From: Nitratidesulfovibrio vulgaris str. Hildenborough
GTDB taxonomy: Bacteria > Desulfobacterota > Desulfovibrionia > Desulfovibrionales > Desulfovibrionaceae
Length of the DNA stretch: 32,000 nt
NCBI RefSeq assembly: GCF_000195755.1
Contig: NC_002937.3
Coordinates: 1,200,001-1,232,000, forward strand
Reading direction: 5' to 3'
Part shown: piece by piece, positions 4,238 to 26,576 of the stretch
Layout: every line of letters begins with the position of its first letter
Position numbering within the stretch: position 1 is the first letter of the stretch
Translations under genes and position numbers: made by a program
Notes under the pieces: model-generated
Told to the model about the DNA's origin: nothing
The model's input: the letters and a program-made list of their open reading frames with translations, nothing else
Database searches by the model: none

Positions 4238-4981
4238 CTAGCTCCCGACCGCCTGCTGGTGGGCTGCGAGCCTCTCGCAGGCCCTCTGGTGATACTCCTT
4301 GGACAGTTCGATGCCGAGGTAGCGCCGTCCGGTGTTGAGGCAGGCGACACCAGTGCTGCCACTGCCCGCGAACGGGTCAAGCACGAGTCCGCCCGGCGCG
4401 GTGATGTCCAGCAGGTTTTCGAGCAACGCCACCGGCTTTTCTGTGAGGTGGATCTTGCGGGCGGTGTTCACGCTATGGCTGTACACCCCCGGCGGGCACT
4501 TGCGGCTGTGCATGATCGGCTTCCCCTTGCTGCCGGTGATGACGTACTCGGCATCGCGCTTGAAGTCGCCAAGGCTGGGTCTGGCACTGGGTTTATGCCA
4601 TGTGACCACCCCTCTCCACATCCACCCTGCGGCTTGCAGGGCGTCCGTCATGGATGGCAGTTGCCGCCAGTCTGTGAAGACCATGATGCGTGCCCCATCC
4701 TTTGCCACGCGCCAGCATTCCGAGAGCCACAGCGTAGCCCACAGGGTGAAGCTGCGCTGGTCGCGGTTGTCTCCGAGCATGGCGGGATAGGTGCGCTTCG
4801 TGTTGCTCTGTTGGTACTTCTGCGCCGGGTCTGCCTGACGAGCCGCCATGGTGACGCCTCCGCTGGAATACGGCGGGTCAGTGAGCACCGTGTCCACGAA
4901 GCCATCCGGCAGAGTGCGGAGAATGGCGAGGGATTCGCCTTGCAACAGTGTCAGCCTTTCATCGTCGAAGATGCGGGTCAT
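4238..4981 (-). CDS. DNA methyltransferase, beta-class amino-MTase (N6-adenine/N4-cytosine family; DPPY favours m6A)
   Basis: 247 aa. Motif IV TDPPYSSGG lies near the N-terminus and motif I DPFAGSGSTG near the C-terminus, the beta permutation. The ATG lies inside the 3' end of the com-like gene. Confidence 0.9.
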   Translation of the reverse strand: MTRIFDDERLTLLQGESLAILRTLPDGFVDTVLTDPPYSSGGVTMAARQADPAQKYQQSNTKRTYPAMLGDNRDQRSFTLWATLWLSECWRVAKDGARIMVFTDWRQLPSMTDALQAAGWMWRGVVTWHKPSARPSLGDFKRDAEYVITGSKGKPIMHSRKCPPGVYSHSVNTARKIHLTEKPVALLENLLDITAPGGLVLDPFAGSGSTGVACLNTGRRYLGIELSKEYHQRACERLAAHQQAVGS

Positions 4982-5153
4982 GGGATGCTCCGTTCCGAGG
5001 CTCGTGGCCTGCCGGACTGGGACTCATGGCCCTCAAGTGGTTCATGGCCCCGCAACGGGGGCATTTGATGGCAAGTTCAATGGCCTCGCCTTTGGCGAGC
5101 AGGCGGTGACATACGCCGCAGCGCAGTTCCCGGTTGGACTGGTTTTCTCTCAT
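4959..5153 (-). CDS. com: Com-like zinc-finger translational regulator (start taken at MRENQSN; the track ORF starts at a GTG at 5201)
   Basis: RCGVCHRLLAKGEAIELAIKCPRCGAMNHL aligns by eye with phage Mu Com (CxxC-x16-CPRC). It sits immediately upstream of, and overlaps, a DNA-modification gene, as com/mom does in Mu. Confidence 0.8.
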   Translation of the reverse strand: MRENQSNRELRCGVCHRLLAKGEAIELAIKCPRCGAMNHLRAMSPSPAGHEPRNGASHDPHLRR

Positions 5154-5410
5154 ATCGGATGGTTGTGTTGGCCCGCTGTGTTCTGCTAGGTTCCGTGGCA
5201 CCCCTGATCAGGGCCATGGAGCAGCGGATCGAACCGGAAGGGGTCGGCCTTTCCGGGGGCCGTGGGCCGGTGTTCTCGCACCGGGCCAGTGGGGGCGTTA
5301 GCGCGCCCCCGCCTGTTCCTCCGGGTTGCCCGGTCGTGTCTCCTACATGCGGATACGACCGGGCGTTCTCGTTCTCCCTATGTGATTGTCACAGAGCGCC
5401 CCGCTTGGGG

Positions 5411-5857
5411 TTACACCGGATAGCTCACCACTATCGCCGTGACGGCCTCCACCGTCTGCGCGGCTTCGACCTGTGCTTCGAGTTCGGCCCGGCGTGTGGC
5501 CAGCTTCTGCCGGGCGTAGTCCAGCCCGGTGGGGTCGGTGGTGGCCAGCAGCGCCGCCTCAACAGCCACCACGGTGGGCGTGGGGTCGGAGATGGCCACC
5601 ACACCCGCGAGGGCGGCATCGTGCCCGGCGGCGATTGCCGCACGCTTGGCGGCCTTGGCGTCGACCAATGACTGTCCCGGCGCGGGCGCGACACAAGGGC
5701 GGCCCTCTGCGTCCATCTTTATGATGCACCCCTGCGCCAGAGCGTCTGTCAGGTCGACATGCTCACTATCGGTGATAGGGATGGCATCAGCGGGGATGTC
5801 GGAGTGTACGCCGTCGAGATAGAAGCCTCCGGTGGAGGGGGAGTGGTATCTCTGCAT
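5411..5857 (-). CDS. Tail fibre assembly / chaperone-like protein
   Basis: 148 aa, directly downstream of the tail fibre gene. The N-terminal YHSPSTGGFY pattern is typical of fibre assembly proteins. Assignment is mainly positional. Confidence 0.55.
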   Translation of the reverse strand: MQRYHSPSTGGFYLDGVHSDIPADAIPITDSEHVDLTDALAQGCIIKMDAEGRPCVAPAPGQSLVDAKAAKRAAIAAGHDAALAGVVAISDPTPTVVAVEAALLATTDPTGLDYARQKLATRRAELEAQVEAAQTVEAVTAIVVSYPV

Positions 5858-14360: not shown

Positions 14361-14878
14361 TTAACCCGCGTCCCTGCTGCCGTGCAGCCGCGCAAGCACC
14401 CTGTTGTGGCGCTCTTCGAGCCACAGCGCCTGCGCCACCTGTTCGGCGAAGGCGTCCATATCGTCGGCGGGGCCGGTGTTGAGCCAGTGGCGAATGAGCG
14501 CCTCGCCCTTGCCGACCCCGCCAAGCTGCTGCCGGGCGCGGTCGATCAGTTTCCCAGATCGCCGAGACCCACGGCCTTGATGAGGGCCGCACTCATGGTG
14601 GTGACGATGCCGGGGTAGGTCTCTGCGTCGCTCTGGAACGTGGCCCTGTCGTCGGGGTGGATGACGTCAAGGATGAGGGCGCGCGCCGCCTGTGCCGGGT
14701 TGCGGTGGGCGGTGGCCTGCATGCGCTTGATGTGCGTGGGGGTGGGACGCCGGAAACGGTAGCTGACGCTCACCTCTGTATCGGCCCAGCGGTCTGTCCA
14801 GCTGTGCTCGAAGGTGGCATAGCCACCGGTTTCAGGGGTGGACGTATCGTCGTCGGAATGCTTCGGGGTGGTGGACAT
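14361..14878 (-). CDS. Tail assembly chaperone, -1 frameshift fusion product (GT-like), predicted 172 aa
   Basis: Hand translation of the -1 frame after the slip at 14555-14549 gives LIDRARQQLGGVGKGEALIRHWLNTGPADDMDAFAEQVAQALWLEERHNRVLARLHGSRDAG, then TAA at 14363-14361, 15 nt before the tape-measure ATG. This frame has no usable start codon of its own. Confidence 0.6.
14546..14878 (-). CDS. Tail assembly chaperone, 0-frame product (G-like, Mu gp41 slot)
   Basis: 110 aa between tube and tape measure. GGAGG SD upstream. Ends 2 codons after a GGGAAAC slippery heptamer. Confidence 0.7.
   Translation of the reverse strand: MSTTPKHSDDDTSTPETGGYATFEHSWTDRWADTEVSVSYRFRRPTPTHIKRMQATAHRNPAQAARALILDVIHPDDRATFQSDAETYPGIVTTMSAALIKAVGLGDLGN
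14549..14555 (-). promoter_or_regulatory. Programmed -1 ribosomal frameshift slippery heptamer G GGA AAC
   Basis: X XXY YYZ heptamer in the correct phase of the chaperone ORF, immediately followed by the 0-frame TGA. Confidence 0.6.
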
Positions 14879-15110
14879 GAGAAGGCCTCCGGTAAGGTGT
14901 TGCGTGCAGGTTGCCCTGCCATGCGGACACCCTAACGGAGGCGTAGGGGGCTTGCCGGAAGCTGTGAAAGCTGTGGATTGATATGGACGAAAATGACTAA
15001 AAAGAGTATATAAAGGCAGCTAGATAAAAGATTATCTTCTATTCTAATCGTTAAGGCATGTGAATGTTTTGCTTTGATTATTTTTAACTCTGCTAAGCAA
15101 GGAGGCACAC

Positions 15111-16133
15111 ATGACTGTTGTTTATGCTTTTTGGAATAACAAGGGAGGCACAGGTAAGACAAGCCTCGCATTTCAAACTGTTGCTCGTTACGCAAAACAT
15201 CACCATGCATCGAAAATCCTGATTGTCGACGCATGTCCTCAAGCGAACATGTCTGAATTATTGCTAGGAGGACTTGAGAGTGGGGGAAGTCATAACGTAC
15301 TTGAATTACACGATCTGAAAGGACGTAAATCTCTTGGAGGTTACTTTCAACTAAGACTTCCAAATCCATACAATGTCCCTCGCTTTGACTGTGATGATTT
15401 TATTATCAATGTTAGTGATTACAATGAACACATGCCCACAAATATAGACCTTCTTTGTGGTGATCCAATTCTCGAACTCCAATCTAACGCGATAAACACA
15501 CTCGCGAACAATAATATTCCTGGCACAAATACATGGATAAAAGTTATCGATTGGATTCGAGATTTTATAAATGCTTGCGATGGTACATATGACACTGTTT
15601 TTATAGACTGTAATCCTTCTTTTTCCATATACACACAGATAGCCCTTGCTTCATCAGATAGAATTATTTTGCCAGTAATGGCAGACGACTCATCTCGCAG
15701 AGCAATACAAAATGCGCTTTCGCTTGTATATGGATTGAGAATACCTTCTGATATATATGCTACATACATGTTCAAAACAAAGCTTGAAACAGAACATAGG
15801 GAAATCCCCAAGGTACACCTTGTGGTCAAGAATAGAATAACACAGTATATGGGATCAGCGTCGGCCTATGATGCTGTTCTTTCCATGATTAAAAATGATG
15901 TTAAAGAAATAAGGGAATCAAACCCTGATTTCTTTACATTTAACAACGTCGATGACGGTTTCGTTGATATCCGAGATTTTCAAACAACAGGCGTTATCTC
16001 TTTCGCAAAGGGAATACCCTTTTTTAAGATGACTCACGGTCGAAAAACGTTAAACGGAAGGAAAATTGCGATAAGGAAAGAGTACCTTGAAAAATGCCAG
16101 CAGGAAATTACCGTGCTTGCAGGAAAGTTGTAA
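15111..16133 (+). CDS. Orphan ParA/MinD/Soj-family P-loop ATPase with an unassigned ~100 aa C-terminal extension
   Basis: 340 aa. Deviant Walker A FWNNKGGTGKTS (residues 7-18), A' box ILIVDACPQAN, Walker B DTVFIDCNPS. AAGGAGG lies 5 nt before the ATG. It is the only convincing plus-strand gene inside the prophage and lies in a low-GC block. Confidence 0.85.
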   Translation: MTVVYAFWNNKGGTGKTSLAFQTVARYAKHHHASKILIVDACPQANMSELLLGGLESGGSHNVLELHDLKGRKSLGGYFQLRLPNPYNVPRFDCDDFIINVSDYNEHMPTNIDLLCGDPILELQSNAINTLANNNIPGTNTWIKVIDWIRDFINACDGTYDTVFIDCNPSFSIYTQIALASSDRIILPVMADDSSRRAIQNALSLVYGLRIPSDIYATYMFKTKLETEHREIPKVHLVVKNRITQYMGSASAYDAVLSMIKNDVKEIRESNPDFFTFNNVDDGFVDIRDFQTTGVISFAKGIPFFKMTHGRKTLNGRKIAIRKEYLEKCQQEITVLAGKL

Positions 16134-16138
16134 AATAT

Positions 16139-16194
16139 TGGCGCAATGGTCCATAGTTGCATTTGTTTAAAGGAACCATTGCGCCATTTTCTTT
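16139..16194 (+). terminator. Rho-independent terminator of the ParA-like gene; its T-tract overlaps the tail tube stop codon
   Basis: 12-bp perfect stem tggcgcaatggt (16139-16150) / accattgcgcca (16175-16186), then ttttcttt. On the opposite strand the stem is followed by auauuuuac. Confidence 0.7.
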
Positions 16195-16639
16195 ACCTCC
16201 TCCTCTTCGCGGGCAGCCCGTTCCACAGGATGGGTTCCAGTATCTTGAACTCGCATTTGACCGCACCCACGTTGGCCTCACCCTGACTGCCGGAGGTGTC
16301 GAAGCTGGTGATGCGGCAGGCGGGCAGCGTGTCGGTGATGGTGCCTTGGTCTTCGTTGGCGTAATTGACCACGATGGGGAACGGCACATGGTCGTAGATG
16401 CCGCCTCCTGTCGCCGTCAGTTCGCGCGCCAGCCTGTCGAACTCGTCGCGGTCGAGGGTCATGGAGCCGGACGCCTCATAGTTCTTGCGCCCGTAGCCGC
16501 GCGGTGTGGAGCCGCGCCCGTAGCGCGGGTCGACATCCTGCCCGTCCTTGTAGCCTATTTCGGTGACGCCCACCGTCTCCCCGCTGGGCAGCCTGATGCT
16601 CACGTCTTCCCAGTCGTACAATCTGCCGTTGATGCCCAT
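16193..16639 (-). CDS. Tail tube protein
   Basis: 148 aa, immediately downstream of the sheath gene (12-nt gap). Size and position match contractile-tail tube proteins. Confidence 0.72.
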   Translation of the reverse strand: MGINGRLYDWEDVSIRLPSGETVGVTEIGYKDGQDVDPRYGRGSTPRGYGRKNYEASGSMTLDRDEFDRLARELTATGGGIYDHVPFPIVVNYANEDQGTITDTLPACRITSFDTSGSQGEANVGAVKCEFKILEPILWNGLPAKRRR

Positions 16640-25916: not shown

Positions 25917-26537
25917 TTAGTTAATCTGGCAGTCTCGCAAGAAGACGTTGCCGATGCTCATGCCGTTGACCGTGCCCACGACTTGGATCTTGGCCCCACG
26001 GCTTATTTTCGCAGCACTTGCCTCGTCCTCCATGATGCAGTTGACCCCGGTAAGGCCAAACTGGTCGACTGCCATCGCGACATACGGAGACCCTGTGATG
26101 TCTTTCTTGATGTCCGTGGCCGTGCCAACAACGAGGATTCTCTTGCCCTTGTATTTGTTGTCGGCAGCCACTTCATTCGCATCATAGGCAGCCCACAGAT
26201 CCCTCGCACTGATGCGTGAGGCTTGGAGGGCCTGCGCCTCGGCTTTTGCCTTGGCCTCTGCTTCGGCTTTTTGCGCACGCTCCTTTTCTGCCTTCTCTAC
26301 GGCTCGCACAGCTTCTGCCTCTTGTCGCACTTGGGCTTGCCTCGTTTTTTCTTCGGGACTCATGAGCGCAGTGCCTACGAGAGAACAGGCAAGGGCAATG
26401 ACAAAGTAAAAGCCAAACGCCTTAAGGCGCGTTCTGTGGTGCGGCTGCAAGAAGAACAACAGTTGCTTGGGAAGAATGATCCCGACCAGCGCAGCAAGCA
26501 TTGCAATAGCAGTAATCGCTCCAAAAAACTGAGTCAT
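25917..26537 (-). CDS. Membrane-anchored OB-fold protein (tRNA_anti-like OB domain), cargo gene
   Basis: Start MTQFFGAITAIAML at 26537, preceded by AGGAGG 4 nt upstream. Two predicted TM helices, a charged coiled linker (EAEAKAKAEAQ), and a C-terminal block ISARDLWAAYDANEVAADNKYKGKRILVVGTATDI...VNCIM...GAKIQVVGTV...VFLRDCQI typical of the tRNA_anti-like OB family. G+C is about 50-57% by hand count. Confidence 0.7.
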   Translation of the reverse strand: MTQFFGAITAIAMLAALVGIILPKQLLFFLQPHHRTRLKAFGFYFVIALACSLVGTALMSPEEKTRQAQVRQEAEAVRAVEKAEKERAQKAEAEAKAKAEAQALQASRISARDLWAAYDANEVAADNKYKGKRILVVGTATDIKKDITGSPYVAMAVDQFGLTGVNCIMEDEASAAKISRGAKIQVVGTVNGMSIGNVFLRDCQIN

Positions 26538-26576
26538 AATTCCTCCTGTTTGCTTGCCGCATATCGCTGATGACAC

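Follow-up and report, generated by a model that had tools for sequence, protein, structure and literature searches.

We identify, in a prophage of Nitratidesulfovibrio (Desulfovibrio) vulgaris Hildenborough, a swappable cassette of low G+C (guanine plus cytosine) content whose single gene encodes a 340-amino-acid ATPase of predicted ParA/Soj fold, and we propose that this cassette is probably a single-protein defence or superinfection-exclusion cargo of the GiPD474 family that protects the lysogen. The stretch analysed, here called the window, is 32,000 nt of the Hildenborough genome, and window positions are counted within it. The prophage is called Mu-like; gene calls and domain matches give it Mu-type portal, Mu F, protease and gp36 genes and a contractile tail. 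The product of the gene is identical to WP_010938408.1 / AAS95589.1 and is labelled 'ParA family protein'. Defence or exclusion is the most likely function because the only characterised member of the family, GiPD474, is a stand-alone anti-phage protein expressed in the lysogen. A first-pass annotation of this DNA had suggested such a role for what it regarded as a candidate undescribed system, since a defence system with a name that consists of one ParA/MinD ATPase gene was not known to it. The role is the best-supported predicted function, through homology to GiPD474 and through occupancy of the rexAB slot by relatives. The word undescribed is out of date, because GiPD474 is such a system and is a full-length homologue with an anti-phage phenotype. 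Since the gene has long carried the annotation 'ParA family protein' in a model genome and its family has one characterised member, it belongs to a very recently described kind rather than to an undescribed system.

The gene gipd474 (STM474_RS13505) is a single gene in the Gifsy-1 immunity region of Salmonella Typhimurium 4/74 and encodes an AAA_31, ParA/MinD/Soj-like product (Bosma, Noireaux and Bowden, Appl Environ Microbiol, Nov 2025; PMC12724215). Its deletion restores plating of phage FO1; carried on a low-copy plasmid, it gives ~5-log protection against T4 and Alf5 as well as protection against FO1, and it is active in E. coli. It has no effect on T7, SP6, S16 and other phages, and the gene is expressed at >500 transcripts per million in the lysogen (PMC12724215). 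Using the knockout primer of that study, we obtained the 361-residue GiPD474 sequence from five IMG/VR contigs; the recovered protein has GGVGKT at residues 29-34, as published, and its C-terminus fits the reverse primer arm. BLASTP aligns residues 5-336 of the window protein with residues 22-357 of GiPD474 at 30% identity (E 7e-51), and hhalign compares the two at probability 100 (E 4e-40). Unusual invariant motifs common to both are WNNKGGxGKT, DxCPQxNxSE (with the Cys), FxDxNPSF and NRxT. Intermediate homologues, at 34-37% identity, are encoded by Pseudomonas phage phi297 and by an IncY phage-plasmid of E. coli. Literature searches on ParA-like anti-phage defence and on AAA_31 together with defence returned the GiPD474 paper only, and a search by guessed locus tags in the DVU1109-DVU1114 range returned no paper.

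The 340-residue protein matches Pfam AAA_31 (1.3e-17) and phrog_164, 'ParA-like partition protein' (1.5e-38). An AlphaFold2 model built from 62 homologues (predicted local distance difference test, pLDDT, 88; predicted template modelling score, pTM, 0.90) gives the protein a ParA/Soj fold, and the top Foldseek matches of this model are Soj, ParA, P1 ParA, ParA2, McdA and the uncharacterised 3pg5. The nucleotide-binding motifs read in the first pass are all there: the deviant Walker A NNKGGTGKT with its signature Lys, the A' box VDACPQAN and the Walker B FIDCNPS, whose Asp, D166, is conserved. Among the 62 homologues, K16 and the Walker A glycines never vary, and K11 reaches at least 90% conservation; in a 12-sequence set that includes GiPD474, K11, K16 and the glycines are all invariant. 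Against the BFVD viral fold library, the only matches were to ParA/CpaE-like and kinase folds of a generic kind.

The same motifs had led to the protein being called catalytically intact, a description that is unjustified because, in the alignment, Cys42 (V-D-A-C-P-Q) stands where Thermus Soj 1wcv (V-D-L-D-P-Q) has its catalytic D44. This Cys is invariant both in the 62 homologues and in the 12-sequence set with GiPD474. In the structures aligned, the C42 column holds the substituted Ala in the trap mutants D44A (2bek) and D41A (8jmj), again Ala in 8ray, and Asp in 3pg5. Ala at the catalytic Asp position of Soj is a substitution that experimenters introduce to trap ATP dimers. If the family behaves like these Asp-to-Ala mutants, its members should bind ATP and form dimers, with poor hydrolysis. 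The C-terminal part of the protein, first described as an extension, is no add-on but turns out to be conserved, family-specific and common to GiPD474; conservation in the family covers the C-terminal third, which closes with a basic beta-hairpin (residues 310-321) and then a helix.

Comparison with related prophages defines the site in which the gene lies. Windows of 200 nt between ~14900 and 16200 have a G+C fraction of 0.355-0.45, against 0.60-0.74 on both sides, and the cassette as a whole is at 38.1% against 67% for the prophage overall. The flanks of the cassette are 97-99% identical between the window and sibling prophages L110, L111 and L112 (tube protein >90% identical), and the homology ends within the tube stop codon (16194) on one side and at 14976-14979 on the other; the low-G+C block that had been drawn at 14976-16194 between the tube and chaperone genes is thus confirmed by both the composition profile and the sibling borders. 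At the same breakpoints the siblings hold alternative cassettes of 1394 and 1245 bp (37-40% G+C). That of L112 (2752-3810) carries a 352-residue DUF3644 gene matching the PADLOC candidate PDC-S19 (E 4.5e-139); that of L110 and L111 carries a 203-residue gene and a 196-residue DUF6680 gene (L110 5572-6858), a pair for which PHROG and PADLOC searches with the L110 proteins gave no match, and L113 has the same cassette start up to its contig end. In L099, with 77% tube identity, the slot (4588-5469) holds a 293-residue low-G+C gene with an RNDIIH (R-x4-H) motif, whose product we call HEPN-like on HEPN/DUF3644 matches that are only sub-threshold. In L100-L106, with 57-58% tube identity, the tube and chaperone genes nearly abut, which marks the empty site. 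At least four slot states are found: empty, ParA-like, PDC-S19/DUF3644, and the pair of 203-residue and DUF6680 genes.

Because siblings hold other low-G+C cassettes at the same breakpoints and distant relatives are empty there, the tube/chaperone site is a swappable cargo hotspot, a true moron slot as the first-pass annotation had suspected. The block in the window is a horizontally acquired, foreign, self-contained single-gene cassette. Every cassette variant opens with a terminator-like hairpin directly after the tube stop (window, L110, L112 and L099 junctions), and every variant stops just short of CACAGCTT x2, a repeat that is conserved in the backbone and has the chaperone gene ~100 nt downstream. 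The tandem repeat pointed out earlier at 14959-14975, AAGCTGTG x2, does sit at the cassette border but belongs to the backbone and not to the cassette. It recurs in L112 and, with one mismatch, in L110, whose cargo differs from that of the window. As a candidate parS-like, ParA-linked centromere it was rejected, because siblings with other cargo carry the same repeat. Among phage records, blastn with the region gave no close relative of this prophage and only the homologue of the gene in Salmonella phage S.Inf 5-2.

The other features described for the gene in the first pass also hold. All 22 other genes within ±10 kb, called in the same prophage, lie on the strand opposite to the ATPase gene, which has a strong Shine-Dalgarno sequence and its own terminator (Table 1). 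The terminator hairpin at 16139-16186 has a folding free energy of -23.6 kcal/mol (z -4.7; 0/200 shuffles as stable) and is followed by TTTTCTTT; a simple terminator scan missed it because its loop is long. A palindrome upstream of the gene is a weak candidate for a copy-specific operator and is not significant alone, because by our estimate ~0.2 such palindromes would be expected by chance in this AT-rich stretch.

These signals bear on the possibility that the gene is a mere hitch-hiker, neutral or decaying, that does nothing in the prophage at present. The window copy lacks the operator array found in its clade, has a divergent C-terminal hairpin and shows the most extreme G+C contrast that we saw (38% vs 67%), all of which would suit such a passenger. 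Its open reading frame (ORF) is nevertheless intact and of canonical 340-residue length, all family-invariant residues are kept, and the Shine-Dalgarno sequence and terminator are in place, and we regard a functionless gene as extremely unlikely.

The window protein belongs to a widespread and tightly conserved clade. More than 3800 database proteins match it, the top matches nearly all of 340 residues and 60-65% identical. Among 1.84 billion cluster representatives searched, 101 match at E <= 1e-30 vs 2778 at E <= 1e-3, so that the family forms a small, distinct branch of the ParA superfamily. We took as genome loci the best 80 of 287 genome stretches with a relative, at one genome per species. 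The proteins at these 80 loci are 57-63% identical to the window protein, measure 339-341 residues in 79 cases and 332 in one, and span Proteobacteria, Acidobacteriota, Verrucomicrobiota, Myxococcota, Actinomycetota, Cyanobacteria, the candidate phyla radiation (CPR) and several archaeal metagenome-assembled genomes (MAGs). The gene is lower in G+C than its flanks at 78/80 of these loci (median 0.50 vs 0.62) and in all 56 of 56 IMG/VR viral contigs.

Within ±4 kb of the 80 loci no neighbour is conserved: the maximum is an integrase at 5/80, and TrwC relaxase and PIN toxin families occur at 3 loci each. The 135 nearest-neighbour ORFs match 153 different Pfam families, among which ParBc has at most one member, being missing from the list of families with two or more. 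No small shared ORF (25-110 residues) was found near homologues beyond three Paraburkholderia loci, and no conserved element was found downstream of the homologues at the 80 loci. A transposon- or attC-like vehicle was also considered; terminal inverted repeats were seen at 5/80 loci (controls, 0) and direct repeats at 3/80 (controls, 1), which is unconvincing.

Of 101 nearest neighbours in IMG/VR viral contigs, 24 are helix-turn-helix (HTH) plus Peptidase_S24 repressors of cI/LexA type and 11 are N antiterminators, and the lambdoid order is cI, then the gene, then N, on one strand, which is the rexAB slot. Contig L143, for example, has a 237-residue cI-type ORF and an N ORF at the ParA-like gene; the first 45 residues of the latter we take to be those of lambda N. 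The homologues of phi297 and of a Salmonella Infantis lambdoid element lie directly downstream of a cI-like repressor gene, and that of the E. coli IncY phage-plasmid directly downstream of a gene for an HTH protein. Elsewhere, the gene lies between gpD and the ogr region of a Xanthomonas oryzae P2-like prophage, in an integrase-adjacent island with a DUF927 primase in Paraburkholderia, and amid toxin-antitoxin and resolvase genes on a conjugative plasmid of X. citri.

Two further observations concern this distribution. Homologues that share 58-62% identity with the bacterial proteins lie on MAG contigs L023, L027, L039, L045, L067 and L074, which are binned as Woesearchaeota, Methanosarcinales, Micrarchaeia, Ca. 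ainarchaeum and Parcubacteria, and some of which have the canonical operator described below (two exact sites in L023); these reflect either very wide recent horizontal transfer or mis-binning. In a set of 5.87-kb non-mobilizable Salmonella Infantis 'plasmids' (L010, NZ_CP148796.1, and ~17 similar ones), a lambdoid immunity region with cII, cro-like and cI-like genes is accompanied only by the ParA-like gene and a handful of small ORFs. Salmonella phage S.Inf 5-2 (OR850760.1, 40.7 kb) carries the gene at 1930-2949, and in both L010 and this phage the product is 57.6% identical to the window protein. Instead of being true plasmids, these small molecules may be pieces of phage or artefacts of assembly.

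Most clade members have a 13-bp palindrome, GTCCA-N3-TGGAC, upstream of the gene, with a median position of -55 when one mismatch or fewer is allowed. It is exact in 20/87 loci vs 0.1 expected from shuffles, and present with at most one mismatch in 53/87 vs 2.9 expected. The sites form arrays of two to four with a strict 21-bp period (61 pairs at 21 bp and 19 pairs at 42 bp; no other spacing more than twice; ~0.45 pairs expected at ±21 bp by chance), placed at -25 to -110 in L023, L024, L065, L081 and ~50 other loci. Operator presence is most strongly associated, among the 340 alignment columns, with columns 311, 317, 319 and 312, all four of which fall in the C-terminal hairpin (consensus GKQTINGHRVQVK), with p ~1e-6 for columns 311 and 317 before any correction for phylogeny. 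A second class supports the link between hairpin and operator: Salmonella L010 and Pectobacterium L069 have the hairpin GSVRVMNRRVKVN and carry, at -50 and -49, TTACCAACGGTAA and TAACCTTTGGTTA rather than the canonical site, which define the class TWACC-N3-GGTWA. These loci have nothing in common but the ATPase gene, and the simplest explanation is autoregulation, in which the protein would bind the operator of its own gene; we infer that the C-terminal beta-hairpin is a candidate DNA-reading element. DNA recognition by a C-terminal beta-hairpin would be without known precedent in the ParA superfamily. The operators inform the mechanism of the family more than that of the window copy, because the latter has no array and its hairpin is divergent; autoregulation and DNA reading by the hairpin may not apply to it.

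Phased arrays beside a ParA-like gene also raise the possibility of a one-component partition or maintenance module, in which the ATPase alone would bind a centromere-like array and use the nucleoid to stabilise excised or episomal elements. The ParA/Soj fold, the presence of homologues on plasmids, and the likeness of two to four palindromic sites with 21-bp period, upstream in typical clade members, to type Ib parC/parS centromere-operators would all fit. Against this, no ParB or other adaptor is present at the loci examined. The lack of a ParB or replication partner in the window had been remarked on in the first pass, and homologues are likewise not consistently beside parB, parS or replication genes. 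The family has Cys where partition ATPases have the catalytic Asp needed for cycling, the array is absent from the window copy, and an integrated Mu-like prophage has no need of partition. Many copies, moreover, are chromosomal singletons amid housekeeping genes, the X. citri plasmid copy is not in a par locus, and the homologue GiPD474 has an anti-phage phenotype. Curated NCBIfam models for ParA, RepA, MinD, BcsQ and ArsA give only matches far below threshold (bits against cut-off: ParA_partition 47.1/180, RepA 29.8/348, PrgP 23.6/400, MinD TIGR01969 15.6/201.75). We therefore consider partition unlikely, and its earlier mention as a way to maintain an episomal form finds little support. On the same sub-threshold scores we rejected filing the protein as a partition ParA, MinD or BcsQ; 'cellulose biosynthesis protein BcsQ', the label used by JGI, is generic and reflects the domain only, and no min gene adjoins the gene or its homologues in the prophage gene calls or among the nearest-neighbour Pfam families.

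The operators lend themselves to another reading, in which the protein is a lysogenic-conversion or host-manipulation factor that binds DNA or a host partner of ParA/MinD/Soj type and alters transcription, replication initiation, division or motility for the benefit of the prophage, with no action on incoming phages. Orphan regulators of ParA/MinD type are known, such as Soj acting on DnaA and FleN/FlhG acting on FleQ, and structures of this kind are among the fold matches. Sequence-specific operators suggest a DNA-binding regulator, and moron slots also carry non-defence cargo. Yet ~60% identity is kept across Bacteria and Archaea, which is hard to square with a partner specific to one host; GiPD474 is active in a host other than its own; and the co-occupants of the slots are defence or exclusion genes (PDC-S19 and rexAB-slot cargo). 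This reading, too, we judge unlikely.

Exclusion might instead be directed at plasmids and other mobile elements, as the first pass also proposed, with the protein acting not on lytic phages but on plasmids or phage-plasmids that enter the cell, by hindering their partition or establishment. ParA-like proteins can cause incompatibility by titrating partition components, and homologues are carried by conjugative plasmids and phage-plasmids. The sole known phenotype of the family targets the lytic phages T4, FO1 and Alf5, however, and we regard a plasmid-directed role as very unlikely.

Several points weigh against a defence function and set the level at which we hold it. Identity to GiPD474 is only 30%, at which function could differ, and the phenotype of GiPD474 rests on a single paper (PMC12724215). 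The nearest chromosomal neighbours of the clade show no clear enrichment of defence genes, with three kinases matching PD-T4-6 and one DpdJ-like helicase among them, and many chromosomal copies lie amid housekeeping genes. No model of PADLOC-DB v2 (2023) matches the window protein, apart from a P-loop-level hit to MkoA at E 0.036; GiPD474 and the phi297, IncY and Salmonella Infantis homologues likewise have no PADLOC match. A scan for sigma-70 consensus promoters on the + strand upstream of the gene found none. The canonical family operator is absent upstream of the window gene, whose hairpin (GRKTLNGRKIAIR) is divergent, and the association between hairpin and operator in the family is uncorrected for phylogeny.

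We propose a mechanism for defence based on the motifs, the operators and the lack of an enzymatic domain. The protein would form an ATP-sandwich dimer through its intact deviant Walker A motif (K11, K16). Because the water-activating Asp is Cys, hydrolysis would be slow or occur only when triggered, so that the dimer would act as a long-lived switch or clamp and not as a motor that cycles in partition. It would bind DNA, and typical clade members would read the phased palindromic operators upstream of their own gene through the C-terminal hairpin, resulting in autoregulation. Since the protein has no enzymatic effector domain, a step after injection would be blocked by binding and not by degradation, the target being the replication, transcription or packaging of phage DNA, or else a protein of the phage. 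Dimer and switch behaviour, DNA binding by the hairpin and the blocked step are all inferred. More tentatively, it is possible, though we hold it doubtful, that the whole family including GiPD474 represents a new class of immunity: an effector-less, hydrolysis-impaired ParA-fold ATP switch (Cys for Asp) that would read specific DNA sequences with a hairpin, regulate itself on 21-bp-phased arrays, stop phages by clamping or occluding DNA or trapping a phage factor and not by destruction, and spread as a one-gene cassette across Bacteria and Archaea.

Table 1. Features of the ATPase gene, its cassette and the flanking genes, in window positions
Feature	Position	Strand	Remarks
GiPD474-family ParA/Soj-fold ATPase gene, 340 amino acids	15111..16133	+	ORF; WP_010938408.1 / AAS95589.1
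Shine-Dalgarno AAGGAGG	15099..15105	+	5 nt ahead of ATG 15111; read from sequence
Deviant Walker A N10-K11-G-G-T-G-K16-T17, signature Lys K11	15138..15161	+	conserved in homologues
TGT codon for Cys42, at catalytic switch-I/A' Asp position of ParA/Soj	15234..15236	+	alignment
Basic C-terminal beta-hairpin, residues 310-322 (GRKTLNGRKIAIR)	16038..16076	+	strands E310-314 and E317-321 in model; divergent in window copy
Intrinsic-terminator-like hairpin + T-run	16139..16194	+	overlaps tube stop codon; also in late tail transcript path
Palindrome AGATAA-N4-TTATCT	15022..15037	.	-89..-74; weak candidate copy-specific operator
Swappable low-G+C cargo cassette	14977..16193	.	1214 bp from 14980, 38.1% G+C; between tail tube and tail chaperone genes
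Backbone repeat AAGCTGTG x2	14959-14966 and 14968-14975	.	outside cassette, at its border; also in L112 and L110
Tail tube gene, upstream flank of slot	16193..16639	-	phrog_4579 'tail protein' 2.4e-51; UniRef name 'Tail tube protein'
Tail assembly chaperone-like gene (DUF6848), downstream flank	14546..14878	-	PF20941; phrog_20303 4.4e-38

Beyond the tube gene follows the sheath gene (phrog_907, DUF2586), and beyond the DUF6848 chaperone-like gene the tape measure gene. Two antisense ORFs on the - strand inside the island, at 14932-15369 (145 amino acids) and 15419-15829 (136 amino acids), are probably spurious, because they overlap a conserved gene in AT-rich sequence. Between the Mu-type portal and terminase genes, a 219-residue ORF at 25917-26576 (-), in a region of ~55% G+C, matches phrog_8545, 'superinfection exclusion Sie-like' (2e-14), and Pfam tRNA_anti-like; it is probably a second moron of the same prophage.

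The link between the pan-domain 340-residue clade and GiPD474 appears to be new, as do the swappable tube/chaperone slot, the Asp-to-Cys substitution and the phased operators with their co-varying hairpin. If the gene defends, a family known only from Enterobacteriaceae (GiPD474, 2025) would be extended to a sulfate-reducing model organism and to a tightly conserved 340-residue clade that reaches from Proteobacteria to Actinomycetota, Cyanobacteria, CPR and archaeal MAGs. The Asp-to-Cys change, the phased operators, the co-varying hairpin and the lack of a partner or effector make the mechanism of the family directly open to experiment. The precise tube/chaperone cargo slot of Mu-like Desulfovibrio prophages can be mined for further candidates, such as the pair of 203-residue and DUF6680 genes.

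Among known systems GiPD474 is the closest. Homology to it is full-length, with the AAA_31 ParA/Soj fold, the same C-terminal region and Cys for the catalytic Asp; both are single genes without a partner and carried as prophage cargo, and the clade of the window protein occupies the same slot, adjacent to cII-cro-cI, in other Salmonella and lambdoid phages. GiPD474 differs in its length of 361 residues against 340, with an N-terminus 17 residues longer in the pairwise alignment, and in its Walker A motif, GGVGKT against GGTGKT. It is encoded in a lambdoid immunity region, whereas the window gene lies antisense to its neighbours in a Mu-like tail operon, in a host that is an anaerobe of the Desulfobacterota.

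Partition ATPases of the ParA/Soj group, both chromosomal and plasmid-borne (for example Thermus 1wcv/2bek, H. pylori 6iub/8jmj, ParA 8ray) share the fold (Foldseek E ~1e-12; template modelling score ~0.75-0.80 on the target), the deviant Walker A with its signature Lys and the Walker B Asp. Their catalytic Asp (Soj D44, HpSoj D41) is the invariant Cys of the window family, however, and the window protein has ~80-100 residues more, in an insertion at about residues 55-110 and in the C-terminal hairpin region; its gene has neither ParB nor parS, and it scores far below the curated cut-offs. Autoregulating ParA proteins of type Ia (P1 ParA 3ez2, F SopA) offer the precedent of a ParA-fold ATPase acting on the operator of its own gene, as would apply to the window family. 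Those proteins use an N-terminal winged HTH and ParB as co-repressor, whereas the window family has no N-terminal domain or partner and its candidate reader is the C-terminal beta-hairpin. In DIP2308 of Corynebacterium diphtheriae (3pg5, structural genomics), the best sequence match among solved structures (E 3e-9, profile), a similar length of 361 residues goes with the same FxNNKGGxGKT start, but the catalytic Asp is kept (VDCDPQ) and only residues 4-195 align by sequence.

The remaining parallels are of position rather than descent. Lambda RexAB and SieB resemble the clade in that its members lie in the rexAB slot between cI and N, on the cI strand, and as self-contained morons expressed from a repressed prophage, as shown for GiPD474. 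The proteins themselves are unrelated: RexAB is a two-protein, membrane-depolarising abortive system, whereas the window product is one soluble P-loop protein. PDC-S19 (DUF3644) is likewise an unrelated protein, and only a defence candidate, yet as a single low-G+C gene it fills the same tube/chaperone slot in a sibling prophage whose flanks are >97% identical to those of the window.

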